NCBI GenBank assembly: GCA_964655955.1
Contig: CAZZPX010000001.1
Coordinates: 1 to 37,143 of the forward strand
Length of the DNA stretch: 37,143 bases
Direction of reading: 5' to 3'
Origin: an uncultured Phycisphaerales bacterium
GTDB lineage: Bacteria > Planctomycetota > Phycisphaerae > Phycisphaerales > JAGLTS01
Shown piece after piece: positions 2,906 through 22,594 of this stretch; the first letter of the stretch is position 1, and the number at the start of each line of letters is the position of its first letter. The position numbers and the translations under genes were made by a program. The notes below the pieces were generated by a model. The model did not search any database, was not told the DNA's origin, and saw only the letters and a program-made list of their open reading frames with translations.

Positions 2906-2961
2906 GTATCAACTTATGGATATTGTATATCAATTGTCTGATAGTGTCAAGTAGTTGATAC
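2906..2961. promoter_or_regulatory. operator-like repeats in the divergent control region
   Basis: 9-bp inverted repeat GTATCAACT (2906-2914) / AGTTGATAC (2953-2961), plus ATATCAAT (2926-2933). A fourth copy, ATATCAAC (3494-3501), abuts the -35 of the HTH-gene promoter. AT-rich intergenic region between divergent genes. Confidence 0.45.
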
Positions 2962-3029
2962 GAATTGCCTTAACCAAAATCGAAAGCAAAATCGTCTACC
3001 CTGTGGACATATCATTCCAGGAGGCAGAC

Positions 3030-3422
3030 ATGGCAGAAGTGGATTTTGACAAGGGCGACCAGCTAGAGCGAATCAAGTCGCTGGTCATCAAGGGAGAGAC
3101 CCTTTATGCCGTTTACGACATGAAGGGTGGTGGCACGGGATTTATGGGGATTACGGACTTGCGGATCATCTTCATGGATGAATCGTTTTTCCGCAAGAGC
3201 AAGGCGCTCGTGACCGTGCCGTTCACAAAGATTACGGCGCTGGGCGTAGAGGATACCGGCCGGTCGCTCAACCCGTTCGGCGCGACCTCGAAGCTGTTCA
3301 TTACGGCCGAGACGCGAGAATGGGAGTTTGAATTCAGGTCGAATGAAAAGGCTCATCGCGCCTACTGGTACATCATGTCCAACCTGCTACAGAATGAGCG
3401 CAAGGGGTTGATGAAGGAATAA
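3030..3422 (+). CDS. bacterial PH (pleckstrin-homology-like, YokE-type) domain protein; moron-like
   Basis: ATG at 3030 follows AGGAGG. The pattern GETLYAVYDMKGGGTGFMGITDLRIIFMDE...VPFTKITALGVE...LFITAETREWEFEF is typical of bPH domains. GC looks clearly lower than the surroundings, and the gene has its own terminator. Confidence 0.8.
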   Translation: MAEVDFDKGDQLERIKSLVIKGETLYAVYDMKGGGTGFMGITDLRIIFMDESFFRKSKALVTVPFTKITALGVEDTGRSLNPFGATSKLFITAETREWEFEFRSNEKAHRAYWYIMSNLLQNERKGLMKE

Positions 3423-3446
3423 TCGACCACGCGCAACACAAAAGCA

Positions 3447-3475
3447 AAAGCCGCCTTGATGGGCGGCTTTTTTTT
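3447..3475 (+). terminator. rho-independent terminator
   Basis: AAAAGCCGCC-ttgat-GGGCGGCTTTT followed by a T-run through 3475. Confidence 0.85.
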
Positions 3476-3504
3476 GAGCGTCAGAATTTCGATATATCAA
3501 CATC

Positions 3505-3534
3505 TTGACATACGTGCCGATGTTGTGTTATCAT
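3505..3534 (+). promoter_or_regulatory. sigma70-like promoter with extended -10
   Basis: TTGACA (3505-3510), 18-nt spacer, TGtTATCAT (TG at 3526-3527, hexamer 3529-3534). The predicted +1 falls on the A of the ATG at 3541. Confidence 0.65.
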
Positions 3535-3540
3535 TGCCCT

Positions 3541-3828
3541 ATGTTGAATTTGGCTAATGAAATGGCTACCGGCTCTTTTCGACCGAAAATCCGCGAGCTG
3601 CTCGACCGATACGAAAAGACCCTATATCGGGCCGCGAAGGACGGTGAGATTAGTTATAGCACAGTTCACCGCTGGCTCAATGAACCCGATGCGATTGAAC
3701 GCATCGAGGGCAAAATCCTTTTTGGTTTTTTGCTGGGTCTCGGGTTGTCGCTCGATGAGGTAAACGAACTTCGTCTCGGTGACGTGTTTGAATTCACCCC
3801 AGAGAAAGAGCAGGAACCGGCTAAGTAG
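3541..3828 (+). CDS. XRE/Cro-CI-type helix-turn-helix regulator, probably translated from a leaderless mRNA
   Basis: IRELLDRYEKTLYRAAKDGEISYSTVHRWLN...ILFGFLLGLGLSLDEV fits the HTH_3 pattern. The upstream part of the track ORF (from 3505) is occupied by the promoter. There is no RBS before 3541. Confidence 0.75.
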   Translation: MLNLANEMATGSFRPKIRELLDRYEKTLYRAAKDGEISYSTVHRWLNEPDAIERIEGKILFGFLLGLGLSLDEVNELRLGDVFEFTPEKEQEPAK

Positions 3829-3949
3829 GAGACAAAAGGCCCACCCCTTTCAGAGCGAGCCTATCGTTTCACCCCTATCCCTGACAATTGCACCTGACGG
3901 GATAGGCATCGGACATTAACAACTGAATGAAATCGAATCGTAATGCCCT

Positions 3950-3994
3950 ACGGGAGCGACGGGGATCGAACCCGCGATCTTCGGCTTGACAGGC
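3950..3994 (-). other. attP core: copy of the 3' part of tRNA-Asp(GUC), from anticodon loop to acceptor end
   Basis: Minus strand reads GC CTGTCAA GCCGA AGATC GCGGG TTCGATC CCCGT CGCTCCC G (anticodon loop with GTC, variable loop, T arm, 3' acceptor). The sequence 5' of it (TAAGC where TCGGC is needed, and no D arm) cannot complete a tRNA. Confidence 0.75.
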
Positions 3995-4014
3995 TTATGT
4001 AATTATCACTAGAC

Positions 4015-4986
4015 CTAACGGCCGAAGAACGCACGGGCCAGACCGTCGCCACCTCGATAGCGGTCGGCCAGTAGTGCGACGGTCGCGTCTACCTCGGTCT
4101 GGGCGATGTCGTCATAGTAGGCGAGCGTCGTGCGCTCTGAGGTATGGCCGGCCAGAAGTTGTCCTACCTTCGGGTCGCCCGATGCGGCGATAGCATCGGT
4201 CACAAGCCGCTTGCGTATGGCGTGGAAGCCGAACGGCCGCACGCCCGCGAATTCGCAGACGCGGTACAGCCCGATTTGCAGCGCGTCGATACGGATACGT
4301 TTCCCGGTTTGCAAACTCAGGAAGACGTACCCTAAACGCGGTGGCACGTGGGTCAGCCAGCGCCGCAACAACTCCGCAGTCTCATCAAAGAATCGAATCT
4401 CGACCCGGTCGGTTTTGCCCTGGCTATCGGCGCGGTGAACGTGCCGGTGGCCGACGGTCTTAGGCCGGTCGAGCGCCGCAACGACGGCCGCGCGGCGCAA
4501 GTTCCACGCTTCACCGCGCCGGCACGCTGAATCGGCTATGAGGCTGACCAGCGCGGCGTCGCGCAGGTCGCGGGGCTGGTAGCCGCGATGGGCGGCGAAG
4601 GCGCCCAGGCTGGACACGACGGCGGCAAAGTCGGCAGGGTCGGCGGCGCGGCTGTGAACGGGCCGGAATGAGTAGCGGTTATCGCGCCCGCGTAGCACAT
4701 TGGAGCCGTCGAGGGAGCAGTAGCGGCGGTCGGCGGCCCAGCGCCAAAATGCGAGATGCGTCGATTTGTGGCCGGCAAGTGTTCCAGAAGCAAGCCCGCG
4801 CTCGCGCATCTCTGCGAAGAAGTCACTCAGGTCGTTTTGCGCAGCGATGAGTGACAACCCCGCCCGGCCGCGGGCATATTGTCCCAATCGACTGCGCACC
4901 GTTCGCAGGTGCGCGCCGGAACAGCCACGCCGTTCCAGTTCCGACAGGTACGCGTCAATAGCGGCCGATAACGTTTTCGGTTTCAT
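4015..4986 (-). CDS. int: tyrosine integrase (phage integrase family)
   Basis: N-terminal SAM-like core-binding region. C-terminal catalytic signature ...FHAIRKRLVTD...LAGHTSERTTLAYY (HxxR, then H...Y). RBS aGGAGGacaaaactgaATG. Directly adjacent to the tRNA-derived att core. Confidence 0.92.
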   Translation of the reverse strand: MKPKTLSAAIDAYLSELERRGCSGAHLRTVRSRLGQYARGRAGLSLIAAQNDLSDFFAEMRERGLASGTLAGHKSTHLAFWRWAADRRYCSLDGSNVLRGRDNRYSFRPVHSRAADPADFAAVVSSLGAFAAHRGYQPRDLRDAALVSLIADSACRRGEAWNLRRAAVVAALDRPKTVGHRHVHRADSQGKTDRVEIRFFDETAELLRRWLTHVPPRLGYVFLSLQTGKRIRIDALQIGLYRVCEFAGVRPFGFHAIRKRLVTDAIAASGDPKVGQLLAGHTSERTTLAYYDDIAQTEVDATVALLADRYRGGDGLARAFFGR

Positions 4987-5150
4987 TCAGTTTTGTCCTC
5001 CTTTCGGGAATGGCAAGCCGGTAGTGTTGAGCCACTACCGGCCTAAATGAGGCGACCGTTTTCCAGGCGGTCAGAATGAAAAGGAAATGCTTAATTACAT
5101 GATATACCCCAGATTCACTTTTGTGACAAAACAATCTCCCGGAGAATGAC

Positions 5151-5498
5151 ATGCTGGCCACTGTCGCATTTTTTATCCTCATTTTGCTCATCATCCCCAT
5201 CCAACATCTGGCGTTCGGCCGTGAATCATCGGCCATCCGGCGCGAGTTGTTTCGACGGGCTATCGGTATCGGGACGGTCATGCTGCTGGCCCTGTTGCCC
5301 GTTCTGCTGGGCGAACTGGACATTGTGACATGGGCGGTCATCTTTGGCGGCTTCCTGCTGGCCGGGGTCATTCTGGCGGGAATGGTTTGGTTCGAGGAAC
5401 GCCGTGAGCGGGCGGCTCGGGTCGAGCAGGCACGGAGAACTCTCCATGAACAAATCGAACAATGGGCACGTCATGACGGCCCGGAAGCGGATTTCTAA
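5151..5498 (+). CDS. membrane protein (3 predicted TM segments), first gene of the rightward operon
   Basis: Hydrophobic segments plus a charged C-terminal tail. GGAGA lies upstream of the ATG. The gene is preceded by an AT-rich region with an extended -10-like TGaTATACC (5100-5108) and the palindrome TTTTGTgACAAAA (5119-5131). Confidence 0.7.
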   Translation: MLATVAFFILILLIIPIQHLAFGRESSAIRRELFRRAIGIGTVMLLALLPVLLGELDIVTWAVIFGGFLLAGVILAGMVWFEERRERAARVEQARRTLHEQIEQWARHDGPEADF

Positions 5499-5706
5499 CG
5501 CTGACGTGGAATTCTACGAGGACAACATAGCCCGCATGTTGCACATACTCAACGAGGTCCGGGGCATCACCCTGGACGTGACGGAAGCAGATTTGATGGA
5601 GGCGATTGCCATGCGCCTGGCGGCAATCACGGAATCGGCAGGACAGACGCGCCGGGCGTTGATTGCCCACCGGGACGGCAAGCAGCTTGGGGGTTTGGAG
5701 CAATGA
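5446..5706 (+). CDS. hypothetical protein
   Basis: ATG at 5446 lies 7 nt after GGAGA. ATGA overlaps the next gene at 5703. The start is uncertain (alternative ATG at 5473). Confidence 0.6.
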   Translation: MNKSNNGHVMTARKRISNADVEFYEDNIARMLHILNEVRGITLDVTEADLMEAIAMRLAAITESAGQTRRALIAHRDGKQLGGLEQ

Positions 5707-6590
5707 AGGCCGTTGACTTCTTCCGCGCACTCGATGACAGCGATCTCGACCCGTATGAGACGCGCTTCCTGCTTCGTGTCTGGCGGCGCGGACAATGCTG
5801 GGAATCGCCCGACAGCATCGCGGAATCGACGGGCATGAGCCGCCGCAAGGTGTATCAGGTGCGCAAGAAACTGCTCGAAACGGGCTGGCTTGTGCTGGTC
5901 GAAGTGCCGGGGCACCTCGCCTATCAGGTCGCTATTCCGGCCGCCGAAAATGCCGTTGAAATAGAAGAATCAAATGTTGTAGACGTGCATGAGGTGCACA
6001 CTGATGCTGTTGTATCTGTGCATGACGTGCACAAAGTTGTGCACCACGTGCACAAACCAGTGCACCAGGTGCACGCCCTACCTATTAATAGGACAAAAGA
6101 AGATTACCCCTCTAAGTATATACACGCGCCCGAGGCGGCCGCGTCCGGGAATGGGGCGGGGGAAGAAGACGACGGCTGGAAGCAGGAGGCTTGGGAGGCC
6201 ATCGTAGACCTCATCGAATTCTGGGAGCAGTTGACGCGCCGCAAGGCTCCCCCGCAAAAGTCTGACGTATTCCGGGATTCATGGCTGAAACCGTTTAACG
6301 AAATTTGGATTGCCTGTGGCCATGACGTTGACGCGGCGAAGGCAAAGATTCAGGCCGTGCGCAACGACATGCTGGCGCAGGGCTTGACGATTTTGAACCC
6401 GGCCAAGTTGCCGGGCCATGTGCAAACGATGATTGACCGCGAACTGTTGCCGCTGACGCAGCGGATGAACGGCAACGGTCATGTGAATTTCAAGAACGAC
6501 CCGGAAGCGCGAGAAGCGCATAACCGGGCCGTTTTTGACCAGGTCGCCAGAGAAATCGAAAAAGGAGAGTGGTCACCGTGGACAATTTAA
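5703..6590 (+). CDS. replication initiator / replisome organiser with N-terminal winged-helix domain (lambda O-like logic)
   Basis: N-terminus ...YETRFLLRVWRRGQCWESPDSIAESTGMSRRKVYQVRKKLLETGWL is wHTH-like. An iteron array and an AT-rich tract lie inside the gene. Confidence 0.7.
   Translation: MKAVDFFRALDDSDLDPYETRFLLRVWRRGQCWESPDSIAESTGMSRRKVYQVRKKLLETGWLVLVEVPGHLAYQVAIPAAENAVEIEESNVVDVHEVHTDAVVSVHDVHKVVHHVHKPVHQVHALPINRTKEDYPSKYIHAPEAAASGNGAGEEDDGWKQEAWEAIVDLIEFWEQLTRRKAPPQKSDVFRDSWLKPFNEIWIACGHDVDAAKAKIQAVRNDMLAQGLTILNPAKLPGHVQTMIDRELLPLTQRMNGNGHVNFKNDPEAREAHNRAVFDQVAREIEKGEWSPWTI
5985..6074. repeat. four 15-bp iterons GTGCAY-NNN-GTGCAC (candidate origin-binding sites)
   Basis: GTGCATGAGGTGCAC (5985), GTGCATGACGTGCAC (6018), GTGCACCACGTGCAC (6039), GTGCACCAGGTGCAC (6060). 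The last three are spaced exactly 21 bp apart. They encode the odd VH-rich peptide VHEVH..VHDVHKVVHHVHKPVHQVH. Confidence 0.7.
6075..6125. other. AT-rich tract with palindrome CCTATTAATAGG (6081-6092); candidate DNA-unwinding element
   Basis: A local drop in GC immediately 3' of the iterons, within an otherwise GC-rich coding region. Confidence 0.5.
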
Positions 6591-7144
6591 CTCAGCACGT
6601 TATCGTCGTCATCCACCTGCTCAGCGCGACGTATAGCCACGCTTTCGGCCCCGAACAGACGCGGGCATACGTGGCGACGCTGGCCGATATCGATGGCGAA
6701 CTTCTAAAGGCGGCCGCGCTGCGGTTCATCGAGAACAACACGTACCCGCGCATCCCGACGCCGGGCGAGTTGCGACAGCACGCGGCCGAGATTGTGACCT
6801 CAGCCCAGGGGCTTCCGGCCGGGGCTGAGGCGTGGGGCGAGGTGATGCACCAACTGCGCTACGTTGGCAGTTGGGGCGCGCCGGCATGGGACAATCCGCT
6901 GATTGCCGCGGCTGTCAAAGACGTGGGCGGGTGGATGAACTTGTGCATGTCGGACAACCCGACGGCCGACCGCGCCCGCTTCATCGCCGCCTATGACGAA
7001 CGGCTAAAGCGGCGCACGCAGGACATGATGCAGCTTCCGGCGTCGGAGAAGTTCCGGGAACGCCTGAGCGAACGGCTCCAGTCCGAGCCGATGCGTCGCA
7101 TATCGGACGTAACGCAGAGGTTGCGTCTACAGGGGGCCAATTAA
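6578..7144 (+). CDS. replication accessory protein, possible helicase-loader-like protein
   Basis: Position immediately after the initiator. GTG at 6578 lies 10 nt after AGGAG (the track start at 6569 has no spacer). Helical protein with a basic C-terminus. The function is assigned by synteny only. Confidence 0.6.
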   Translation: MDNLTQHVIVVIHLLSATYSHAFGPEQTRAYVATLADIDGELLKAAALRFIENNTYPRIPTPGELRQHAAEIVTSAQGLPAGAEAWGEVMHQLRYVGSWGAPAWDNPLIAAAVKDVGGWMNLCMSDNPTADRARFIAAYDERLKRRTQDMMQLPASEKFRERLSERLQSEPMRRISDVTQRLRLQGAN

Positions 7145-8921: not shown

Positions 8922-9376
8922 GCGGGCCGGACCCTGCAGAGTTGACGACGCGCCAATCCGAGTTGCTACGGTTCATCGTGCGCCATAAAGAGGCGCACGA
9001 CGGTAACAGTCCGACACTCCGCAAGATTGTGGACGGCACCCGATATTCTTCCACGTCGGCCGTGGTTTACGCGCTGAACAAGCTCGAGCGTTACGGCCAC
9101 ATCGTCAGAGGCGACGGCTGTGCCGCTCGTGACATTACGGTGCTCAATACGGATTATGTTCGCAAGATTCGTAAGGATATCGGCATTGACTACTGGCGGC
9201 GACAGGCTGAAATGTGGCGCGATCTGTGCCACGAGTTACAGGAACGCAACGGAAAGCCCGACGTGGAAGAAATGCCGTGTGAGCGTTGCCGCGAGTTAGA
9301 GGGCCAGGTTATGGCGCTCGAAACCGAGTTGTACAGTCTGCGGCGCAGGGTCGCTATGCTGAGCAATGTGATATGA
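8918..9376 (+). CDS. LexA-like winged-HTH DNA-binding protein without a peptidase domain, plus C-terminal coiled coil
   Basis: GTG at 8918 (GTGA overlap) lies 10 nt after GGAGG. LTTRQSELLRFIVRHKEAHDGNSPTLRKIVDGTRYSSTSAVVYALNKLERYGHIVR matches the LexA N-terminal DNA-binding domain pattern. No Ser/Lys S24 domain follows. Confidence 0.7.
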   Translation: MSGPDPAELTTRQSELLRFIVRHKEAHDGNSPTLRKIVDGTRYSSTSAVVYALNKLERYGHIVRGDGCAARDITVLNTDYVRKIRKDIGIDYWRRQAEMWRDLCHELQERNGKPDVEEMPCERCRELEGQVMALETELYSLRRRVAMLSNVI

Positions 9377-9427
9377 GGGCAAGTGTCAAGTGGCACGTAG
9401 GTCGATAGCAAGATTCAGGAGGAACAA

Positions 9428-9691
9428 GTGAAAAGGAATAAGAATTCGCAGTACACTCTCAGTCTGGCCATTGTGGGGTTGTTGGCACTAGCGGCCGTCA
9501 TTTGGCATATGTCCATCGTGACGGCCGAAAGCCCCCCCGAATGGCCAACGGCGACGCCCGGTGCCGCCATGACCGCGCCTGCGCCGGTCAGCGGCTACCC
9601 GGCTCCACCACCGGTCGAGCCCTATCCCGCGCCCTATCCCCCACCTGGCTATCCGTCATTCCTGCCGGCCGTGTTGGAGAGCTACCCGTGA
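9428..9691 (+). CDS. membrane-anchored proline-rich protein
   Basis: GTG start lies after cAGGAGGaacaa. One TM segment, then a PAPxP-rich tail. Confidence 0.7.
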   Translation: MKRNKNSQYTLSLAIVGLLALAAVIWHMSIVTAESPPEWPTATPGAAMTAPAPVSGYPAPPPVEPYPAPYPPPGYPSFLPAVLESYP

Positions 9692-9951
9692 ATGAAGTCA
9701 TTGCCGGTCAACTCGCGCTCCTGGTATCCAATATATATCAATACTACCGTAACCACGGTTACCACACATTCCACTATTGGATCGCGCACGAGCCCGGCGA
9801 AGGAGTCCTGGCCGGCGCCCTGGCCGATTTCGTAGAGGAGCACTTCCCGGTGGAGTGGGCCGCCGCTTGGCAACCCTACACCGACGACGCGACCTGCTTG
9901 CCGCGCGACCCGCGTTCCACGGCCGCGAATCAAGAGGAGGCCAACCCATGA
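9688..9951 (+). CDS. hypothetical protein
   Basis: GTG at 9688 (GTGA overlap) lies 9 nt after GGAGA. The upstream part of the track ORF (from 9502) lies in the other frame of the previous gene. Confidence 0.6.
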   Translation: MNEVIAGQLALLVSNIYQYYRNHGYHTFHYWIAHEPGEGVLAGALADFVEEHFPVEWAAAWQPYTDDATCLPRDPRSTAANQEEANP

Positions 9952-10064
9952 TTGACGTGCTACTCAACAACCTGGTGGCTCTGGCCTCTTACGGTCTGTG
10001 CCTCGTCGTGGCATTTTGGCTGGGCTGGAAAAGCTGGCACCGGAGGAAAGACGATGAAGAATAG
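9948..10064 (+). CDS. 38-aa membrane peptide
   Basis: ATG at 9948 (ATGA overlap) lies 7 nt after GAGGAGG. MIDVLLNNLVALASYGLCLVVAFWLGWKSWHRRKDDEE. Confidence 0.55.
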   Translation: MIDVLLNNLVALASYGLCLVVAFWLGWKSWHRRKDDEE

Positions 10065-13246: not shown

Positions 13247-14647
13247 ATGAAAAAAGCAACTGCAGAACTATTCACGGGCACGAAGTCGGTCAGGCTGGAA
13301 GACCTTCCAGAGGAGGCCTGGCGCATCATCGTGGGGGACACGGGCGACGGCCGCGACAGGCTGAGCAAGCTGTTTGGCGCGGTCGGCTGGCTGTATCGCT
13401 GCGTCGATATCCGCGCCGGCGCGGTGGCCAATATGCCCTGGGCTATCCGCAAGGGCGAGACGGTCATCATGACCGATGAGGATGACGCGCCGGAACGCTA
13501 CGAGTGGCTTGCGGATTTACCGGCGATGCTCTACCGGACAGAGGCGGCGCTCGCTCTGGCCGGCCGCGCCTACTGGTTTAACGAGCGCAACTATATGCGC
13601 ACGCTGAATGTGCGCTGGTTGCGGCCGGATAGCGTCAAGCCGGTCATCGACAAGGATAGCGGCTTGACCGGTTTTACCCGCGCCATCGACGGCATGGAAA
13701 AGCCGCTGGAACTGGCCGACATCGTTTACTTCTGGCTTCCTGACCCGTTCGTGGAAATCGGCCCGGCCGAGCACTTTCCCGGCAAGGCGGCGCTCGGCGC
13801 GGCCGGTGTGCTGGCCAACATGGATGCCTTTATCGCCGGCTACTTCGACCGGGGCATGATTAAAGCGACGCTGTTGAAATACCTGACGCCGATGAGCAAG
13901 GATGAAGGCGAGCGCGTGCGCGAGTGGTGGCGGCGCGTGGCCACCGGCATCAGAAACGCATTCACCACCGAGGTTGTGCGCGGTGATTTCGAGGCGCTGA
14001 CTATCGGGGAAGGCTTGCATGACCTGCAGAACACGGCGCTCACCGTCGAACAGCGTGAGGCCATCTGTACGGCGCTGGGCGTGCCGCAGAGCAAGGTTAC
14101 GGCGAACGCGGCCAATTTTGCGACGGCCAATCAGGATGCGCGGGCGTTCATTCAGGACACGATTGCGCCGGAATGCCGCCTGATTGAATCGGCCGTCAAC
14201 CGGCAATTGCTCGGCCCGGCCGGGCTGCGTCTGGAGTTCAAGCCCGACGAATTGCCGGTCATGCAGGAAGATGAGGCGGCGCGGGCGGCGTCGCTGGAGG
14301 CGTTGGTCAGGGCTGGCATGTCGCTGGAAATGGGCATAGCCGTGCTGGGCTATGACCTGCCGGATGATATCGAGCTACGGGAACCGGCCGCGGCCACGCC
14401 TCCGCAGTTGCTACCCTTCACCGGGCGACAGGAACAGACACAACCGGACGGTAACGCGCCGGATGACGGCGAGCGCGTCGAGGAAACGCGCCGCTTCCTG
14501 CGCTGGGCAAAGAAGCGCGAGAATCCCGACCCCGACCAGTTTGAGAGCATGGTGCTCAGCCAGGCCGAGAAGGTTGCATTGTTGGGGGACGCTGATAGCG
14601 ATGATGCCCCCTTTCACGGCGGTCACGACTGGCAAGGCTATCCGTAA
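13247..14647 (+). CDS. portal protein
   Basis: 466 aa, immediately after TerL and before a MuF-like gene. Acidic C-terminal tail. Confidence 0.85.
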   Translation: MKKATAELFTGTKSVRLEDLPEEAWRIIVGDTGDGRDRLSKLFGAVGWLYRCVDIRAGAVANMPWAIRKGETVIMTDEDDAPERYEWLADLPAMLYRTEAALALAGRAYWFNERNYMRTLNVRWLRPDSVKPVIDKDSGLTGFTRAIDGMEKPLELADIVYFWLPDPFVEIGPAEHFPGKAALGAAGVLANMDAFIAGYFDRGMIKATLLKYLTPMSKDEGERVREWWRRVATGIRNAFTTEVVRGDFEALTIGEGLHDLQNTALTVEQREAICTALGVPQSKVTANAANFATANQDARAFIQDTIAPECRLIESAVNRQLLGPAGLRLEFKPDELPVMQEDEAARAASLEALVRAGMSLEMGIAVLGYDLPDDIELREPAAATPPQLLPFTGRQEQTQPDGNAPDDGERVEETRRFLRWAKKRENPDPDQFESMVLSQAEKVALLGDADSDDAPFHGGHDWQGYP

Positions 14648-15347
14648 CCCGGACGGCCGTCAGATGCGGCGCTACGAGCGCGAGTTCGAGGCGGCGGTCA
14701 CGGCGGCGCTCGATCGCCTGCGCCGGGCGATTCAGCGGGATATCTCAGACGACAATGTGCAGGACATGATTGCCCGCCTGAATGACGACGCGGTGACGCG
14801 GCCGTTTCAGGACGCGATTGTGACCGAGTTGGAGCGCGTCGCCCTGGCCGGCTCGGAGTTCGGCCGCCTGCAGGTGGAAGGGGATGTGTTCGGCGTGAAG
14901 GCGCTTGAAATGACGGCGTGGGATTTGGCCAACAACGCGGCTGCGCAGTGGGCGATTGGTTACGGCTATGACCTCGTGCGCGGGCTGCTGGACACGACCC
15001 GCGACCGCCTGCAGATTGAGATTGCCGAGTACATCAACAACTCGCAGACCATTGGCCAGCTTATCGAGCGCATTACGGCCGGCGGCGTGTTCGGCCAGCC
15101 GCGGGCGCACGCGATTGCCGTGACGGAGGTGACACGCGCCTACGCGCAGGGCAATTTGGCGGCGTGGCGTGCGTCGGGCGTCGTCGAGGGCAAGCAGTGG
15201 AACACGAACAACGATGAACTGGTATGCCCGGTGTGTGGCCCGCTGGCCGGGCAAGTGGTCGCGCTTGATGAGCCGTTTCCCGGCAATATTGCCGCGCCGC
15301 CGGCTCATCCGCGTTGCCGGTGCTGGATTGTCCCGAAGGTGACCTGA
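14601..15347 (+). CDS. head morphogenesis protein, SPP1 gp7 / Mu F family
   Basis: C-terminal CPVCGPLAGQVV...PPAHPRCRCW is the family signature. The start is uncertain (ATGATG at 14601 overlapping the portal gene, or ATG at 14664). Confidence 0.85.
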   Translation: MMPPFTAVTTGKAIRNPDGRQMRRYEREFEAAVTAALDRLRRAIQRDISDDNVQDMIARLNDDAVTRPFQDAIVTELERVALAGSEFGRLQVEGDVFGVKALEMTAWDLANNAAAQWAIGYGYDLVRGLLDTTRDRLQIEIAEYINNSQTIGQLIERITAGGVFGQPRAHAIAVTEVTRAYAQGNLAAWRASGVVEGKQWNTNNDELVCPVCGPLAGQVVALDEPFPGNIAAPPAHPRCRCWIVPKVT

Positions 15348-15796: not shown

Positions 15797-15996
15797 CGAC
15801 CGAACAGATGACCGAACTGCGAACGATATACACGGTCGAGCCGGTGGAGGGCGAGATGGACGCGCCGCAGGTGGAAGATACGGCGATGCGGGCGGTGCTT
15901 CTCGAGATACGGCGGGCGCTGATTACGCAACTGCGTGCGGTCGAGCGGGCGCTCGGCATCTCGCCGTCAATCCCGCCACGGAAGCGGCCGCATTAG
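15793..15996 (+). CDS. hypothetical small protein
   Basis: ATGA overlap with the upstream gene. 67 aa, helical, basic C-terminus. Confidence 0.65.
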   Translation: MTTEQMTELRTIYTVEPVEGEMDAPQVEDTAMRAVLLEIRRALITQLRAVERALGISPSIPPRKRPH

Positions 15997-16085
15997 TCCT
16001 GTCCCGTCAGCCAGCGCCAGAGGGCGACCCATAGCTCGACGTACCAGTAGCGACTGCGGCGATAGGAGCGGCGACGTTTGGTCAT
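15993..16085 (-). CDS. candidate 30-aa Arg/Trp-rich micro-ORF, antisense to the late operon
   Basis: MTKRRRSYRRSRYWYVELWVALWRWLTGQD. ATG at 16085 lies about 47 nt downstream of the predicted start site of a good minus-strand promoter. The RBS is weak (GGGAA). The stop overlaps the convergent gene stop by 3 nt. Confidence 0.35.
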   Translation of the reverse strand: MTKRRRSYRRSRYWYVELWVALWRWLTGQD

Positions 16086-16101
16086 GACGTATATTCCCGT
16101 A

Positions 16102-16131
16102 TTGACATATAGTTGGGGTCTGTTGTAGAAT
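16102..16131 (+). promoter_or_regulatory. sigma70-like promoter facing the capsid gene
   Basis: TTGACA (16102-16107), 18 nt, TAGAAT (16126-16131). Predicted +1 about 16138. Confidence 0.6.
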
Positions 16132-16138
16132 AACAGCA

Positions 16139-16167
16139 ATTGTATTGGTAGCCGTGCCCCCTGGCAA
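16139..16167 (-). promoter_or_regulatory. sigma70-like promoter on the minus strand, face-to-face with the plus promoter
   Basis: Minus strand TTGCCA (16167-16162), 17 nt, TACAAT (16144-16139). Predicted +1 about 16132. Confidence 0.55.
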
Positions 16168-16175
16168 AGTGACCA

Positions 16176-16222
16176 CCGGGCGCGAAGAGACTGATAGTCC
16201 TCTTCGCGCCCGGTTTTGTTTT
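16176..16222 (+). terminator. strong rho-independent terminator immediately upstream of the capsid gene
   Basis: Perfect 14-bp stem CCGGGCGCGAAGAG / CTCTTCGCGCCCGG (16176-16189 / 16200-16213), 10-nt loop, then TTTTGTTTT (16214-16222). Confidence 0.85.
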
Positions 16223-16232
16223 GCGAGGTTCT

Positions 16233-18026
16233 ATGCACGCACTAAAGATTTTGGAGCAAGACGACAAGACCGCCATCCTCGGCGGTTATGGCGTTGTGTT
16301 CGGCGGTTCTGACCTGGAGGGGGAAACGTTCACGCCGGACACTGACTATATGCTCGACCTCGTGCCGGAAAAGCCTGTCTATATCGACCACTCTGAGCCT
16401 ACCTTCGTCGCGGCCGACGGCAAGACGATAAAGCTGGCCGGGATAGATGATCCGGTCGGCCGCGTGTTGGAAGTCACTCCCGACGACGTGGGGCTGTACA
16501 TGCGCCTGCAGGTGGAAAAAGCGGGGCGCTACTGGGAGATTGTCGAGCAGATGGTTGGCACGGGGAAGGCGGGGTTGTCATCTGGCACGGTTGGCCATCT
16601 GGCCCGACGCGCCGGCAAGACGATCACCCGTTGGCCTATCGTGGAGGAGAGTATCACGCTAACCCCGGCCGAGCCGCGCACGGTTGGCGTGGAACGGTTG
16701 AAGGCGCTGGTCGAATTAAACCCTGACCTAGAGGCGGTGCTCCCAGAGGCGGCCGGTAAAACCGCGACGGATGCCGCGACGGAAGGGGCCGAGGAGACGG
16801 CCGCCGGGCGACCGGATATCAAGATTGTTGAATCTGAAACGGAGAAAGATGAAATGAGCGAATTGAACCAGACGCCCGGCGCGGCCGATGACCTGCAGAA
16901 CAAGGTCGATGCCTTGTCGGAGAGCGTCAACAAGATTATGGGGCTGTTGGAAGGCAGCCCGGCGCTGAAGCGAGCCGGTTATACGACCGACGACGGCGGC
17001 GCGGCCGACCCGACGCACAAGAGCTTTGGCGATTTCCTGCTGGCTGTGAAGCGCAATGACGGCAAACGTCTAACCACGATTTACGGCGCGACGAAGGACA
17101 TGGCCGAGGGCAGTGGCGCTAGCGGCGGCTATCTCGTGCCCACCGAGTTCCATGCCCAGCTTTTGCAGGTCATGGCCGAGCAGTCGCCCATCTACGCCCG
17201 CGTGTTCAAGCAGCCGGTCAACACTGACGCGGGCGAGTATCCCGCGCTCGACCAGTTCGCTAGCCCGTCGGCCGGCAGTGGCGACACCGCTATGGCCGGC
17301 GGCGTGAAAGCCAAGAGCAAGGCCGAGGGAGCCGCGCTTGATGAGACTGAGCCGAAGTTCACTGACTTGACCTACCGCATCAACAAGATTGGCGGCTACG
17401 TCGAGGTGTCGAATGAACAGATTGCCGATTCCGCGATTTCTGTCGAAACGCTGCTGCGCCGGCTGTTCGCTATTGCGATTGGCTCCAAGAACGAGCGCAA
17501 CATCCTGCTGGGCAGTGGCACGGGCGAGCCGTTGGGCATCATGAATGCGGATGCCACGATTGGCGTAACAACCGCGACCAATGACGCATTTGCCTACGCT
17601 GACGTGCTGGCGATGTGGGCGAAGTTCAAGAACGTCTCGGGCCAGACGCCGGTGTGGATTTGTCACCCGTCGCTGATTCCGCAGATTGGCACGCTGGCCG
17701 TGGCTTCCGGCTCTCCGGTCGTGTGGGCCGGCAACCTGGCGTCCGGTCAGCCGTCTACGCTGCTGGGCTACCCGATTCTGTTCAGCGAGCACATGTACCA
17801 GTGGAAGGGCGACGACATGCTGCTGGCTGACCTCGGCTCTTACGTCCTGTTCGAGCGCCAGGCGTTGTCCATCGCTTTCAGCGAGCACGCCGCCTTCACC
17901 TCTGACAAGGGGACGTGGCGCTTCACGAGCCGCAACGACGGCAAGCCGTGGGTGAAGAAGCCTATCACGCTGGCCGACCCGACGGGCAGCTACACGGTCA
18001 GCCCGTTCGTCTATCACAACGACTAA
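16233..18026 (+). CDS. in-frame fusion of HK97-type prohead protease, scaffold-like linker and HK97-fold major capsid protein
   Basis: N-terminus GGYGVVFGG...VYIDHSE...AGLSSGT is S78/U35-protease-like. The middle is an acidic/coiled-coil segment. The C-terminus ...SGGYLVPTEFHAQL... and downstream is HK97 MCP-like. An internal in-frame ATG at 16854 has GGAGA 8 nt upstream. Confidence 0.9.
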   Translation: MHALKILEQDDKTAILGGYGVVFGGSDLEGETFTPDTDYMLDLVPEKPVYIDHSEPTFVAADGKTIKLAGIDDPVGRVLEVTPDDVGLYMRLQVEKAGRYWEIVEQMVGTGKAGLSSGTVGHLARRAGKTITRWPIVEESITLTPAEPRTVGVERLKALVELNPDLEAVLPEAAGKTATDAATEGAEETAAGRPDIKIVESETEKDEMSELNQTPGAADDLQNKVDALSESVNKIMGLLEGSPALKRAGYTTDDGGAADPTHKSFGDFLLAVKRNDGKRLTTIYGATKDMAEGSGASGGYLVPTEFHAQLLQVMAEQSPIYARVFKQPVNTDAGEYPALDQFASPSAGSGDTAMAGGVKAKSKAEGAALDETEPKFTDLTYRINKIGGYVEVSNEQIADSAISVETLLRRLFAIAIGSKNERNILLGSGTGEPLGIMNADATIGVTTATNDAFAYADVLAMWAKFKNVSGQTPVWICHPSLIPQIGTLAVASGSPVVWAGNLASGQPSTLLGYPILFSEHMYQWKGDDMLLADLGSYVLFERQALSIAFSEHAAFTSDKGTWRFTSRNDGKPWVKKPITLADPTGSYTVSPFVYHND

Positions 18027-18056
18027 TCCGGTCAATCCGGTAGGAGAGAAACCATC

Positions 18057-18497
18057 ATGGGAAAGAAACTCAGTGAAGCCGTTGCCGTGGTCGCCTGCAT
18101 CGACCCGGATGCTTACGGAACCGGCGCTCAGACCTCGGACTGGATTGACATGTCGAAGTTCGAGCGGGTGCTGTTCATTGTCCAGGCGGGCACGCTGGGC
18201 TCGTCGGCTACGTTGGATTTCAAAGTCCAGCAGTCGGCGGCCGACAGCGGCACGAATCCGGCCGATATCAGCGGCAAGGCCATCACGCAATTGACCGAAG
18301 CGGGGACGGATAGCGACAAGCAGGCTCTGGTCGAGGTTCGCGCCGACGAACTGACCGCGGGCTATCGCTACATCGCGGGCGTCCTGACCGTCGGCACGGC
18401 CACGTCTGACGCCGGTGTGCTGGCGATTGCGTCCGAGCCGAACTATGGCCCGGCGTATGACTACGACCTGGCCTCGGTTGATGAGATTGTCGCCTGA
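18057..18497 (+). CDS. hypothetical head-associated protein (possible decoration/cement protein, by position)
   Basis: RBS tAGGAGAgaaaccatcATG. 146 aa, directly after the capsid gene. Confidence 0.75.
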   Translation: MGKKLSEAVAVVACIDPDAYGTGAQTSDWIDMSKFERVLFIVQAGTLGSSATLDFKVQQSAADSGTNPADISGKAITQLTEAGTDSDKQALVEVRADELTAGYRYIAGVLTVGTATSDAGVLAIASEPNYGPAYDYDLASVDEIVA

Positions 18498-19144
18498 TGA
18501 TTCACGTGGTCACACCGTTCTCCCGTCCTGAGAACGCGCTTGCGCTGCTTAGGCATTTATCGGGCCAGGGGGTTGCCCTGACGTGGCACCCCCTGGTATC
18601 CGATATCCCCTTTCCGGCCGGATGCGTTCGTGACTGGGTGCTTCCTCTGGCGGTCGACGTGCCGGCGGGGGTTGACCCATTCTGCTGCAAGCTGCGGGCG
18701 TTTGTGGAAAGCGGCCGCATTCAGGACGGAGAACGGTATTGCGTGCTGAATGACGACGACCTGTACGCGCCGGGCGTTCTGGCGGCCGTTGACGCCATGC
18801 CTGAGCGCATCGTGGTCGTGAGCATGTTGCGCGGCCAGCGCGTTCCGGCCTACGTCGCCAATGGCCACTACCATCCGACGGGGCCGCTGACGGCCGCGCC
18901 GGACAGGATGCACGTCGGCGCGATAGGCGTCGAGCAGTATTTCGTCATGGGCGAGATATTCCGGCTCGCTGACTTCCGTCTCGACCGGCCGGCCTGTTGT
19001 GACGGGCTGGTGGCCGAGTGGCTGGCGGCGACGTACCCGGATGATATCCGCTATGAACCGGAACTCTATGTGTTGTTCAACCGGCTTGAGCCGGGCAGGT
19101 GGGCGGTAGATTATGACGAAACTGTTGGCCTTTTGCCCGCTTAA
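18497..19144 (+). CDS. GT-A fold glycosyltransferase-like protein
   Basis: N-terminus MIHVVTPFSRPENALALL (Rossmann-like strand plus SRPEN) and a NDDD (DxD-like) motif. ATGA overlap with the upstream gene. Confidence 0.65.
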   Translation: MIHVVTPFSRPENALALLRHLSGQGVALTWHPLVSDIPFPAGCVRDWVLPLAVDVPAGVDPFCCKLRAFVESGRIQDGERYCVLNDDDLYAPGVLAAVDAMPERIVVVSMLRGQRVPAYVANGHYHPTGPLTAAPDRMHVGAIGVEQYFVMGEIFRLADFRLDRPACCDGLVAEWLAATYPDDIRYEPELYVLFNRLEPGRWAVDYDETVGLLPA

Positions 19145-19859
19145 TCCCAACTATCCGCGCCTGTGGGGGCGCACGGTGCAGAGCATCTTCCGGCTGGAGC
19201 ATGACGGGCCGCTGGACTGGCTTTTCGTCGCTAACGACAACCCCCACGAGCGGCCGTATGACAATATTACCCATAACTACGAGCGTGCGCGTCGGGCGGC
19301 GCTGGAAGGCGGCTATGACTTCCTGCTCACGATAGAGAGCGACATGGTCGTGCCGCCGGGCGCTATCGACCAGCTGCTGGCCTGTGACGCGGACGTGGCT
19401 TATGGCCTGTACGTGTTCCGTCACGGCCGCCGGACGTGGAGCGCCTACACGACGCTCGAGGAGCGGCATGGCGTGAGCCTGTCCGAGGACGCGCCACGCG
19501 CTCGTCGGGAATGGGGGAAGGTTATCGACGTGGCCGGTGTGGGGTTGGGCTGTGCCCTTATCAGTCGCAAGGTATTGCGGACTATCGACTTTCGCATGGG
19601 TGACAACGACAGGGTGTCGAATGACTGGCAATTTGCCCTCAACCTGCAGGAAGCGGGCTACAGCCAGCGGGCGCACCTCGGCGTTGTCTGCGGGCATCAC
19701 AGTTATAAGCCCTGGCCACAAATCATCTGGCCCGACCCGGACGCGCAGACCCTTTACCGCGTGGAATCGCTAGGGGACGCGCCGACGGTTGCGCCGGGCG
19801 AGAGGATGAGCGTGCGCGTGGGCATGGGGGTCAACAGCATTCACAGGGAAGCGGTATGA
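19113..19859 (+). CDS. family-2-like glycosyltransferase
   Basis: YDFLLTIESDMVVPPGAIDQLL (DxD-type ESD) and VAGVGLGCALISRKVL resemble GT2 motifs. Overlaps the upstream gene by 32 nt. Confidence 0.65.
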   Translation: MTKLLAFCPLNPNYPRLWGRTVQSIFRLEHDGPLDWLFVANDNPHERPYDNITHNYERARRAALEGGYDFLLTIESDMVVPPGAIDQLLACDADVAYGLYVFRHGRRTWSAYTTLEERHGVSLSEDAPRARREWGKVIDVAGVGLGCALISRKVLRTIDFRMGDNDRVSNDWQFALNLQEAGYSQRAHLGVVCGHHSYKPWPQIIWPDPDAQTLYRVESLGDAPTVAPGERMSVRVGMGVNSIHREAV

Positions 19860-20467
19860 GCGAGCCATACGCCACTCTTGAGGAATTACAGGCGCACATT
19901 GATGCGTCGGGCGGCGCGTCCTGGAGCGCGGGCGACGTTGCCAATATGGAGATTGCGCTCGACGCGGCCACGCGCTGGCTTGATGAGCAGATGGACACGC
20001 GCTTTCGGGCCAATGAGACCGATGAGACGCGCATCTATTCGGCGCGTTGGAATGACCTGGTCTACATCGATGACCTGATTGAGTTGACGACGTTGAAAAC
20101 CGACGCGGACGGCGACGGGGTGTATGAAGTGGTCTGGACAGACGCGGATTTCATTCTGGAGCCGGCCAACGCGATAGCGGGCAATCGCCCGTACCGGCAG
20201 ATTCGACGGCGGGCGAATGGGTCGCATTCGTTTCCCGTTGGCGGCTACGAGGTCGAGGTCACGGGCAAGTTCGGCTATTCGGCCGAACCGCCCGGCCCGG
20301 TACGTCAGGCGTGCCTGCTGCTGGCACACCGGCTGTGGATGCGCAAGGACGCCGTCTTTGGCGTGGCCGGCACGCCGGGCATGGGCGTGACGGTTGTCCA
20401 GGCGCGGATTACGGCCGATGCCGACATTCTGGCGATGCTGGAAGGGATTGAGCGGCGCTATGTCTGA
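19856..20467 (+). CDS. head-tail connector/adaptor (gp6-like)
   Basis: N-terminus YATLEELQAHID...ANMEIALDAATRWLDE is typical of gp6-like connectors. ATGA overlap upstream. Confidence 0.8.
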   Translation: MSEPYATLEELQAHIDASGGASWSAGDVANMEIALDAATRWLDEQMDTRFRANETDETRIYSARWNDLVYIDDLIELTTLKTDADGDGVYEVVWTDADFILEPANAIAGNRPYRQIRRRANGSHSFPVGGYEVEVTGKFGYSAEPPGPVRQACLLLAHRLWMRKDAVFGVAGTPGMGVTVVQARITADADILAMLEGIERRYV

Positions 20468-20882
20468 GCCATCGATTGAACGCTTCATTGATGAGGTGAT
20501 TGAGGTTGTCCGCGCCATTCCGGGCATTGCTTTCGCGCCGGATGACCCGCCGGGAACGATTGCCAACCATCCGGCGGCCGTTGTGTGGCTGACGGAAGGG
20601 CGGGCGCAGGGCGGTCCCGCGCCACTGGTCACTTACCATCATCGCGTGCGCATCGGCCTGATTACGGCGTTCGGCAATATGGCGCTGGCCAACCAGCGGA
20701 TTTTGCCGCAAATCGAGCCGGTGATTGACGCGGTGTACCGCAAGTTGTTCACGAGCGGCTACACGCCGATTCAGAACATCGAGGAAATTTCATATACCTA
20801 CGGGCCGATTCAGTGGGGCGATATCTGGTATTTCGGTGCGCTGATTGACCTGGGCGAGGTGAAGATACAGAGGACGCTATGA
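20460..20882 (+). CDS. neck / tail-completion-like protein
   Basis: ATG at 20460 overlaps the upstream gene by 8 nt. The size and position between connector and tube suggest this role. Weak resemblance to tail terminator/completion families. Confidence 0.6.
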   Translation: MSEPSIERFIDEVIEVVRAIPGIAFAPDDPPGTIANHPAAVVWLTEGRAQGGPAPLVTYHHRVRIGLITAFGNMALANQRILPQIEPVIDAVYRKLFTSGYTPIQNIEEISYTYGPIQWGDIWYFGALIDLGEVKIQRTL

Positions 20883-21067
20883 AACTGAAATACATAGGCA
20901 ATTCGTTTATCCCCGACATTCCAGCGCGGGATTTAAGCGACGAGGAAGTCGAGCGGTTGGGCGGCGCGGCGGCGTTGATTGCCACCGGCCTCTATGCCGA
21001 GGACAAGGAAGTAAAGCCCGCGGCCGGGAAGAAGGCCGGGAAAGAGGTGAATGATGAACGGGGCTAA
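20879..21067 (+). CDS. small hypothetical protein
   Basis: ATGA overlap upstream. 62 aa, Lys-rich C-terminus. Confidence 0.55.
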   Translation: MKLKYIGNSFIPDIPARDLSDEEVERLGGAAALIATGLYAEDKEVKPAAGKKAGKEVNDERG

Positions 21068-22067
21068 GTGGGCGCACAAGATTCAACTCGGCCGTGAGAG
21101 TACGCCCGGGCAGTCTGTCGCCGCGACCACGGTCTGGCGTGGCGTAGGTGGCAATCTGAAAGAGCACCGCGAGATGGTTGACGTGCCTGAGCAAATCGGC
21201 ATCGCCATCCCGTCGAATCGCTCGTATTTTGGCCGGTCGCACGGGGCGCTGTCGATGGCCGCGACGCCGGCCACTTTCGAGCAGCTAATGCACATTCTGG
21301 AAGCGGGTATCAAGAGCGTCGGCACGGGTGCCGCTGACGGCGCTGGCTCAGGCAAAATCTACGCCTACCCGATGGGCCATTCGACCATCAATACCATCAA
21401 GACTTATACCCTCGAAACCGGCGATAACCAGCAGGCCGAGGAAATGGAATATTCGTTTGTCGAATCGTTCACCCTGTCGGGCGAGCGCGGGCAAGCGGTC
21501 ATGGTATCGGCCGATTGGGTCGGCCGTCAGGTGTCGAATGCGACGTTTACCAGCGCGTTATCCATCCCGACAGTCGAGGAGGTTATCGCCAATAAAGCGT
21601 ACTTCTACATTGACGAGCCGGGCGGCACTATCGGCACGACGCAAGTCACTGGCACGTTGTTGTCATGGGAGTTGAGCGTGACGACCGGCTGGCGGGCGAA
21701 GTGGGTCATGGATAAGAACCAATATGAGTTTGACTTCATCTATTTCGACCCTGACACATTCAGCGCCGAGTTTAGCGCGACCTTCGAGCACAACGCGACG
21801 ACCGTAGCCGAGAAGGACAAATGGCGCTCCAACACGGGGCGTTTAATTCGTCTCACAATGTTCGGCAGTGAGTTCGCCACCGCGGGCACATCATATAGCA
21901 ACAAGGCCCTGCGCCTGGATATGGCGACGCGCTGGACTGACTTCGCTGCGCTGGATTCCGACGAGGGCAACAGCGTCATCAATGTGACCGGCAAGGTCGG
22001 CTATGACAGCGTGGCCGCGAAGTCGCTGGAAATCACGGTCGTGAATGAGCTTGCATCCGTGCCTTAG
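21051..22067 (+). CDS. major tail (tube) protein
   Basis: 338 aa, immediately upstream of the chaperone/frameshift pair and tape measure gene. RBS AAGAGG. No sheath gene is present. Confidence 0.8.
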   Translation: MMNGAKWAHKIQLGRESTPGQSVAATTVWRGVGGNLKEHREMVDVPEQIGIAIPSNRSYFGRSHGALSMAATPATFEQLMHILEAGIKSVGTGAADGAGSGKIYAYPMGHSTINTIKTYTLETGDNQQAEEMEYSFVESFTLSGERGQAVMVSADWVGRQVSNATFTSALSIPTVEEVIANKAYFYIDEPGGTIGTTQVTGTLLSWELSVTTGWRAKWVMDKNQYEFDFIYFDPDTFSAEFSATFEHNATTVAEKDKWRSNTGRLIRLTMFGSEFATAGTSYSNKALRLDMATRWTDFAALDSDEGNSVINVTGKVGYDSVAAKSLEITVVNELASVP

Positions 22068-22088
22068 GCGCGGGGATAGGAGGAACCC

Positions 22089-22367
22089 ATGAGTGACAAT
22101 GACGATCTGACGACCTACCGCTTCCACGTGACGGATGAGCGGGTCGAGGATATGGAATTCGGTCTGTTGATGGATGTGTCGGGTGAGCGCATGTCCATCC
22201 CGGCGATGGCCCGGTTCCTGGCGCATTTCATGGTCGACGGGGACGGGCAATACCTGGAACCGGCCGAGGCCATGAAAGCCGTGCGCTATATCAAGGTGCG
22301 CGAGATGAAGGCGACTGTCGAAAAGCTCACGGTGGAGATGCAGGAGGCGGCCGTCCCAAACGGATAA
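22089..22367 (+). CDS. tail assembly chaperone (G-like short form)
   Basis: 92 aa, acidic, canonical position before the tape measure gene. RBS tAGGAGGaacccATG. Confidence 0.8.
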   Translation: MSDNDDLTTYRFHVTDERVEDMEFGLLMDVSGERMSIPAMARFLAHFMVDGDGQYLEPAEAMKAVRYIKVREMKATVEKLTVEMQEAAVPNG

Positions 22368-22594
22368 GGCGGCAGATTTACAATGCCGCCCTGCTTCCCG
22401 ACAAGCCTCTGCCACTGCCGGCGTGGGTTGGCATCCTGCAGGCGGCCGAACAATGGGGGTGCCCGCCGTGGGATGTGACGGGCGAGACGCCGCCCAAGCG
22501 GGTCATGTGGTTTTTGCGCCGGTCTATCTTTGAGAACGAGAAAGAACGCGGCCTGAGAGACTACCGAAAGCATCATGGGAAAAAACCTGGTTGA
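22089..22594 (+). CDS. tail assembly chaperone, -1 frameshift-extended form (G-T-like)
   Basis: After slippage, my translation is PKRIRRQIYNAALLPDKPLPLPAWVGILQAAEQWGCPPWDVTGETPPKRVMWFLRRSIFENEKERGLRDYRKHHGKKPG, stop at 22592-22594. There is no ATG-initiated ORF here, so the track misses it. Confidence 0.6.
22355..22361 (+). other. candidate -1 programmed frameshift heptamer C CCA AAC
   Basis: X XXY YYZ pattern in the zero frame, 2 codons before the G stop. The -1 frame stays open for about 78 codons from here. Confidence 0.6.

Follow-up and report, generated by a model that had tools for sequence, protein, structure and literature searches.

Why would a phage carry two predicted sugar-transferring enzymes in the middle of its head genes? 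The question is raised by the window, the whole 37,143-nucleotide stretch of DNA analysed here (contig CAZZPX010000001.1, assembly GCA_964655955.1, deposited under an uncultured Phycisphaerales bacterium). Two overlapping open reading frames (ORFs), ORF1 or GTa (18497..19144, + strand, 215 amino acids, aa) and ORF2 or GTb (19113..19859, + strand, 248 aa), lie there between the gene of p146, a capsid-associated protein (18057..18497, + strand, 146 aa), and that of the head-tail adaptor (19856..20467, + strand, 203 aa; phrog_442, 1.3e-9), which form the upstream and downstream edges of the insertion site. A sequence-only reading of this DNA had placed both ORFs at these coordinates and on this strand, as the analysis confirms, and had proposed that their products glycosylate the virion. 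Virion glycosylation is also the best explanation of the pair on the present analysis, and a reasonably probable one.

AlphaFold2 models built from the family alignments place both proteins among the GT-A glycosyltransferases (GTs), in agreement with Foldseek and with the earlier prediction of a GT-A fold. The ORF2 model (predicted local distance difference test, pLDDT, 93.4; predicted template-modelling score, pTM, 0.89) gives 255 matches in the Protein Data Bank (PDB) at E<=1e-3, and its nearest folds are the human collagen galactosyltransferase COLGALT1 (3e-11), A197 of Sulfolobus turreted icosahedral virus (STIV; 6e-10), Mimivirus R699, the GT domain of LH3 and yeast Mnn9. The ORF1 model (pLDDT 89.9, pTM 0.88) gives 140 matches, led by WrtF (1.4e-9), AvpGT, SpsA and GlcAT-P. 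For both proteins the top matches are all GT-A glycosyltransferases, with a Foldseek probability of 1.0, and in the BFVD database ORF2 matches GT-A proteins from uncultured Caudovirales. On these models, the GT-A assignment is unambiguous for ORF1, which is of the WrtF/SpsA-like type, and equally unambiguous for ORF2.

Conserved motifs accompany the predicted folds. In ORF2, the central beta-strand at residues 70-74 (FLLTI) leads into E75-S-D77, an ExD variant that is invariant in 64 homologs, as are G142, G144, C147 and H195, the last within the invariant C193-G194-H195 motif. In ORF1, the central strand at residues 80-83 (YCVL) is followed by N-D86-D87-D88, whose DDD is invariant in 29 homologs. 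The motifs first picked out by eye, VVTPFSRPEN and NDDD in ORF1 and IESDM and GLGCALISRKVL in ORF2, are all present; they correspond to conserved catalytic signatures and are not chance matches. With a GT-A fold and a DxD-type motif in each, both proteins are predicted to transfer sugars. Their hydropathy maxima over 19-aa windows are 1.47-1.55 (ORF1, 1.47), and both products are predicted to be soluble and free of transmembrane segments.

Profile searches, proposed earlier as a check on the GT-A fold, barely detect it, whereas predicted structure finds it. The label "GT-A/GT2-like" consequently holds for the fold but not for GT2 at Pfam thresholds. The best Pfam match of ORF2, Glyco_trans_2_3, reaches 19.2 bits against a cut-off of 27, its PHROG matches are weak, and PF00535 appears at E<=0.01 in just 5 of 64 family members; NCBIfam and PADLOC give no match to it. 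A direct sequence search of ORF2 against the PDB returns nothing meaningful, and the ORF2 profile finds STIV A197 alone (E 0.037, over the GVGLGC...R..LE motif). ORF1 has no match in Pfam, PHROGs, NCBIfam or PADLOC, none of its 29 homologs matches a GT model in Pfam, and neither its sequence nor its profile retrieves anything meaningful from the PDB. Against 50,697 phage records, tblastn yields no match for ORF1 and three partial matches for ORF2 (27-29% identity, none from a mycobacteriophage), and blastn of positions 16000-22100 yields none. In a library of 1.84 billion representatives, clustered at 50% identity, the ORF2 profile nevertheless collects 351, 1,395 and 4,962 representatives at E<=1e-30, 1e-10 and 1e-3, and by these counts the family is a large one that has no curated Pfam model.

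ORF1 and ORF2 are real genes under purifying selection. Compared with the closest relative, a locus with the same gene order (L181), the ratio of nonsynonymous to synonymous substitutions is 0.11 for ORF1 and 0.20 for ORF2, against 0.10-0.36 for the flanking structural genes. The N-termini of homologs agree with the predicted starts of both, and a collection of 5.8 billion proteins holds 30 homologs of ORF1 and 215 of ORF2. The two genes overlap by 32 nucleotides (nt) in different frames (29 nt in L181), and ORF2 runs into the adaptor gene through a true ATGA overlap (19856-19859). A second ATGA had been reported between p146 and ORF1; that junction has instead one shared base (TGATG; stop 18495-18497, start 18497-18499). 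No promoter-like or terminator-like site was found within 18000-20000, and these overlapping junctions bear out the claim that the GT genes form a coupled part of the head-gene operon. The sole strong promoter-like site on the + strand of 15500-22500, identified by consensus match only, is a sigma-70-like candidate at 16102..16131 (TTGACA-18-TAGAAT, 11 of 12 consensus positions matched) within the 225-nt gap that precedes the capsid gene, and it likely starts the transcript that covers both GT genes.

Related loci show how stable this position is. The set comprises 80 viral loci found with the ORF2 profile, 10 found with the ORF1 profile, 7 from bacterial genomes and 80 anchored on p146, for which a narrower alignment was used because the full one is too diverse; the 80 loci found with the ORF2 profile come from IMG/VR, and annotation relied on iterative searches seeded with the structural proteins of the window. 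An ORF2 homolog (35-56% identity) sits among same-strand structural genes in all 80 ORF2-anchored loci, and so its placement in a structural module is not accidental. The order head genes, GTb, adaptor occurs in 49 of the 80, and adaptor-neck genes, GTb, tube or tape-measure gene in another 22; of the remainder, five loci reach a contig end on one side and have structural genes on the opposite one, and four are minor variants. The homolog likewise lies in the structural module in all seven bacterial-genome loci and in a prophage (L002, in GCA_015657915.1). Three loci (L073, L075 and L078) have an unusual head-module order, in which a portal-like gene takes the place of the adaptor after capsid and GTb.

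The cassette itself is an optional, dispensable insertion at the p146/adaptor junction. Among p146-anchored loci, 22 carry a GT, 20-26 have the adaptor directly after p146 and 8 hold another insert. The closest backbone relative (L171; portal 70%, major capsid protein (MCP) 74%, adaptor 71% and tube 66% identical) has no cassette, and its p146 gene is joined directly to the adaptor. Where the insertion is present, its content varies. Across 39 non-redundant head-type loci it spans 0.6-7.0 kilobases (kb), with a median of 2.1 kb; 23 of these loci have at least one further GT-like gene (GT2, a second GTb-like copy, Anp1-like or sub-threshold MptE-like), 18 have one or more S-adenosylmethionine methyltransferases, including O-methyltransferase/RMNT_CmcI types, and about 4 have the ORF2 homolog as the sole cassette gene. 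Two loci with close p146 homologs, L011 (83%) and L184 (79%, from an Anaerolineae metagenome-assembled genome, MAG), carry an O-methyltransferase and a GT2-like gene in the slot of ORF1. From this comparison, ORF2 appears as the conserved anchor of the cassette, with swappable partners.

One recurrent partner may be informative about the acceptor. In L002 the gene beside the ORF2 homolog (9373..10017) gives a sub-threshold MptE-like/DUF115 match (26.7 bits against a cut-off of 34.6), and the same slot is filled alike in L004, L005, L006, L008-L010 and L025. The MptE-like/DUF115 domain occurs in Maf flagellin glycosyltransferases, and this partner, if real, is a hint of protein-directed glycosylation. 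Very large cassettes are found in L034-L037 (about 2915..6953), L020 and L080, where 4-7 kb with at least six genes, among them two or three methyltransferases and several proteins without a Pfam match, separate the capsid gene from the ORF2 homolog. No p146 was detected in L034-L037.

ORF1 is the rarer, more mobile and variable partner. It is paired with ORF2 in L181 and L024. Homologs 67-71% identical to it stand alone on an unrelated backbone, directly after a large Peptidase_M23 tail lysin (L182, 6500..7126; L183, 1443..2069; L083, 7001..7627), which points to recent horizontal movement. In these three loci the solo homolog lies at the end of the structural module, and primase, DNA methylase or DnaB-type genes follow downstream. 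More distant relatives, about 33% identical, lie in deoxysugar/polysaccharide clusters beside genes for guanosine diphosphate (GDP)-mannose 4,6-dehydratase, which fits a GDP-6-deoxyhexose donor. A distant ORF1 relative is also surrounded by a long sugar-biosynthesis cluster on a contig classed as viral (L091, 1505..13641), with two GDP-mannose 4,6-dehydratase-like genes, a sugar C-methyltransferase, a GT1 and a 501-aa double-GT2 fusion; either a phage carries this glycan pathway or the contig is a bacterial fragment that was misclassified.

Taken as virion glycosylation, the locus would work as follows. An insertion at the p146/adaptor junction of a temperate HK97-type siphophage, ORF1 and ORF2 would make up a cassette of two glycan-building enzymes and be expressed, from transcription to translation, along with the late head genes. 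The resulting GT-A enzymes, soluble and cytoplasmic, would draw on host nucleotide-sugars, and most likely they would furnish a surface protein of the virion (MCP, p146 or tail tube) with a short glycan, either ahead of assembly or in its course. Because ORF2 is constant and its partners are interchangeable, we infer that ORF2 would recognise a conserved phage protein and place the first sugar on it, while the partners would elaborate the glycan; ORF1 would then extend it, possibly from a GDP-6-deoxyhexose donor. The analysis shows that the genes are real, that their products have the GT-A fold and its catalytic motifs, that they are embedded in the operon at a conserved position, and that the cassette is optional and its partners variable; which protein accepts the sugar, which enzyme acts first, which sugars are donated and what the phage gains are inferred.

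Several features favour a virion role: the overlapping embedding in the late operon, the conserved position in structural modules and the variable GT and methyltransferase partners, whose composition and head-module site parallel the cassette of mycobacteriophage Corndog. In the structural comparison, the closest folds of ORF2 include protein-directed or viral GTs (COLGALT1, LH3, R699, A197), which would favour the same role. A Pfam survey of the 33 other window proteins found no flippase, hydroxymethylase or other DNA-modification gene. The machinery for rival functions thus seems to be missing, as neither a transmembrane segment nor a flippase or hydroxymethylase is predicted, and this too would favour the virion.

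Which virion protein might carry the glycan? The candidate acceptors are the MCP, p146 and the tail tube. The p146 of the window matches phrog_28483 (5.7e-38), a PHROG with no assigned function. Its family comprises 2,147 proteins, and the family alignment combines strongly conserved blocks with a variable Ser/Thr/Gly-rich loop. The window protein has no Pfam, NCBIfam or PADLOC match, and two homologs 63-67% identical to it carry a precomputed match to Pfam PF21190 (Bbp16), a match found in one of 38 members of the aligned family (E 0.005). Comparison of the p146 family with Bbp16 of Bordetella phage BPP-1 by hhalign gives E 7.7e-5 over 96 columns, at a probability of just 62%. This moderate evidence makes p146 a probable cement or decoration protein of the Bbp16-like jellyroll kind. 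Bbp16 has the same size as p146 and a gene in the same position, directly after the MCP gene, but it comes from a podophage, BPP-1, in which no GT cassette accompanies bbp16. In L060 (5564..6563) and L097 (6564..7563), two tandem, diverged p146-like copies follow the capsid gene.

Several results weigh against virion glycosylation. The suggestion that relatives without the GT pair might also lack Ser/Thr-rich termini on capsid or tube proteins was not borne out for p146 or the MCP: Ser/Thr fractions in relatives with and without the cassette are 0.170 and 0.176 for whole p146 and 0.180 and 0.186 for the MCP C-terminus. No general co-variation of p146 with the cassette appears in an all-pairs comparison, and this candidate signal was dropped; in an evenly sampled set the coupling is not significant (Mann-Whitney p=0.08, n=8 against 20). 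The solo ORF1 homologs after tail lysins weaken a strict order in which ORF2 primes and ORF1 extends. Fold likeness does not fix the acceptor, as WrtF acts on a polysaccharide and AvpGT on a nucleoside. TarP and similar soluble GT-A enzymes act on polymers of the cell wall, and the lack of a transmembrane segment therefore does not exclude an envelope target. Finally, the function is predicted from genes, in a lineage without a cultured member.

Two further observations concern p146 itself. Its loop has a Ser/Thr fraction of 0.24 in cassette-bearing relatives and 0.18 in cassette-free ones, with overlapping spreads, and phages without the GT genes have near-identical loops; Ser/Thr content was rejected as an acceptor signature on these grounds. 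Cassette-free L171, with its MCP at 74% identity, has a p146 only 52% identical to that of the window, while GT-bearing loci with an MCP at 30-39% keep a p146 at 66-70%.

The most serious competing explanation is that the enzymes modify a host envelope glycan (a teichoic-acid-like polymer, S-layer glycan, O-polysaccharide or exopolysaccharide precursor) and not the virion, with receptor masking against superinfection or reduced adsorption of progeny to debris as the benefit. We regard it as unlikely, although several points speak for it. The phage has an integrase (4015..4986, - strand, Pfam phage integrase) and a LexA-like regulator and is therefore temperate; the best fold match of ORF1, WrtF, is an O-polysaccharide fucosyltransferase (PMC12595478); and distant ORF1 relatives lie in deoxysugar/polysaccharide clusters. 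ORF2 also matches the wall teichoic acid GTs TarP and RmlT (Foldseek E about 1e-5 to 1e-6), and the ORF1 homologs behind tail lysins occupy a moron-like spot in other phages. Conversion genes usually carry a promoter of their own and are found close to the integrase or attachment (att) site, whereas a distance of about 13.5 kb separates the integrase from the GT genes, which overlap adjacent structural genes and lack a promoter-like site. Confinement of all 80 ORF2-family loci to structural modules would be unexpected for a host-directed moron, and enzymes made only minutes before lysis would have little time to remodel the envelope. GtrABC-type lysogenic-conversion modules combine a membrane flippase or bactoprenol-linked GT with a site by the integrase or att and autonomous expression, and ORF1 and ORF2 fit none of these.

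Glycosylation of phage DNA or of a small molecule (a nucleotide or defence signal), serving anti-restriction or anti-defence, is improbable. ORF1 does resemble AvpGT, a nucleoside glycosyltransferase, and phage GTs that put glycans on DNA offer a precedent (Pyle et al. 2024, cited in PMC12619734). However, the 33 other window proteins include, by Pfam, no hydroxymethylase, thymidylate-synthase-like or other base-modification enzyme, there are no PADLOC matches, and the partners in relatives are sugar O-methyltransferase-like and do not belong to nucleotide metabolism. Genes of this kind usually belong to an early or replication module and would not be expected between the capsid and adaptor genes; DNA glycosyltransferases of the T4 alpha/beta-GT type come with hydroxymethyl-pyrimidine synthesis genes and an early context, and ORF1 and ORF2 differ on both counts. 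Least plausible, and very improbable, is that one or both proteins are catalytically inactive GT folds that serve structure or assembly, a function suggested for H3 of vaccinia virus. H3 is indeed among the fold matches of ORF2 (Foldseek rank 26) and the neighbours are assembly genes, yet the metal and nucleotide-sugar binding motifs are invariant in both families, close relatives with p146 joined to the adaptor dispense with the cassette, and the partner genes are enzymes.

Virion glycosylation by phage-encoded GTs has its main precedent in mycobacteriophages. Freeman et al. 2023, as summarised in PMC11600133, PMC12363180 and PMC11256854, reportedly described it for Corndog, with a methyltransferase (gp35) and GTs (gp36-38), and for Che8, with GTs gp108-110. 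The Corndog genes are reported to modify capsid and tail tube proteins (PMC11600133, PMC12363180). In this kind of system the glycans are carried by the C-termini of capsid and tail tube subunits and depend on the phage GTs. Corndog gp35-38 are part of the head module and come shortly before the gene of the major head protein. Corndog shares with the window tandem small soluble GT-A enzymes at a head-module site, and relatives of the window add O-methyltransferases. In general, mycobacteriophage cassettes are, like this one, co-oriented with late genes and vary in content between phage clusters. The insertion point differs from that of Corndog, lying after the capsid gene and p146 and before the adaptor. 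In Che8-type phages, unlike in the window, the right genome end holds the GT genes, and Corndog is therefore the better positional precedent.

The precedent invoked by the sequence-only reading holds at the level of the fold but not of homology beyond it. The validated Che8 and Corndog GTs show no family-level homology to ORF1 or ORF2: hhalign probabilities are 33% for the ORF2 family against Corndog gp37, the best value, 24% for the same family against Che8 gp109 and 4.8% for the ORF1 family against Corndog gp38. Hosts differ as well: those of the window-type phages appear not to be Actinobacteria. Relative to Corndog, what is new is the different GT families, another fixed insertion point, other host phyla and a conserved anchor with swappable partners.

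Other structural neighbours illustrate how far fold comparison reaches. Like ORF2, STIV A197 (PDB 2C0N) is a small, soluble, virus-encoded GT-A protein (Foldseek rank 5, E 5.8e-10, target template-modelling (TM) score 0.72), but it is only 17% identical, belongs to an archaeal virus of a different capsid lineage, and has an acceptor that is, as here, putative. The capsid protein of STIV is reported to be glycosylated (Larson et al. 2006; Maaty et al. 2006). The collagen hydroxylysine galactosyltransferase COLGALT1 (family GT25), the LH3 GT domain and Mimivirus R699 share with ORF2 the GT-A fold and act on proteins (Foldseek 3e-11 to 1e-7), but they are 10-14% identical, reach TM scores of about 0.6 and are multi-domain eukaryotic or giant-virus enzymes. 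The window encodes no hydroxylase partner, and their acceptor chemistry is therefore not transferable to ORF2. WrtF of Rhizobium tropici, SpsA and AvpGT are similar to ORF1 in size (E 1e-9, query TM score 0.60-0.66) but only 18-21% identical, and WrtF comes from a bacterial O-antigen cluster, not a head operon. WrtF is described as a metal-independent GT-A O-polysaccharide fucosyltransferase (PMC12595478), whereas ORF1 keeps its invariant DDD motif.

Demonstrations of virion glycosylation by a phage's own genes are, to our knowledge, confined to a few actinobacteriophages, in which it changes recognition by antibodies. If virion glycosylation is the correct reading, the ORF2 family (at least 351 clusters at 50% identity, E<=1e-30) would flag a glycosylation cassette that sequence alone suffices to identify and that resides in the head module of many uncultured phages of non-actinobacterial hosts. 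The anchor enzyme and its fixed site would then serve as a handle for surveying phage glycan coats in metagenomes, and the cassettes would supply biochemistry with GT-A enzymes that are small, soluble and encoded next to candidate protein acceptors. The role of glycan coats in sediments, digesters and biofilms, where antibodies are irrelevant, would become a new question, with adhesion to the matrix, resistance to proteases or grazing and avoidance of non-productive adsorption as possible benefits.

A broader proposal is conceivable, though we lean slightly away from it: the ORF2 family could be the priming enzyme of a widespread, undescribed capsid-glycosylation system, in which a hypervariable cassette occupies a fixed hot-spot between p146 and adaptor in the head operon, and the abundant Bbp16-like p146 or the MCP is glycosylated, in a large uncultured lineage of phages of Chloroflexota, Firmicutes and other phyla. 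In that event self-encoded virion glycan coats would be a general phage trait with O-antigen-like diversity and not a mycobacteriophage peculiarity. Named relatives and integrated copies point to Anaerolineae and other Chloroflexota, Anaerovoracaceae and single bins of other phyla. The hosts accordingly appear to be Chloroflexota and other non-actinobacterial phyla, an assignment that is provisional owing to MAG binning, and the host of the window phage is probably an uncultured member of the Anaerolineae (Chloroflexota).

The window as a whole, at 61.7% G+C, looks like a near-complete temperate siphophage genome, and the neighbours named by the sequence-only reading are as it described them. 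Upstream of p146 lies the prohead protease-HK97 major capsid protein fusion (16221..18026, + strand, 601 aa), supported by Pfam Phage_capsid (8e-47, residues 302-584), phrog_10 (6e-46) and TIGR01554 (1.3e-68); the adaptor follows ORF2, and a tail tube-like protein (21051..22067, + strand) gives a sub-threshold match to Pfam Phage_tube_2 (5e-4). The capsid gene has a TTG start, and its N-terminal part is the prohead-protease-like region; protease and capsid are separate genes in relatives such as L002. Other Pfam families in the window are phage integrase, LexA-like DNA-binding, DUF5131, CAP domain, Beta_helix, Laminin_G_3 and EAD7, and the tail-fibre region has carbohydrate-binding-type domains. 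Mechanical ORF calls overlap by about 300 nt between a MuF-like gene (14352..15347) and the ORF at 13247..14647, and by 74 nt between a 162-aa neck gene (20394..20882) and the adaptor; the true starts of the MuF-like and neck genes are probably further downstream.

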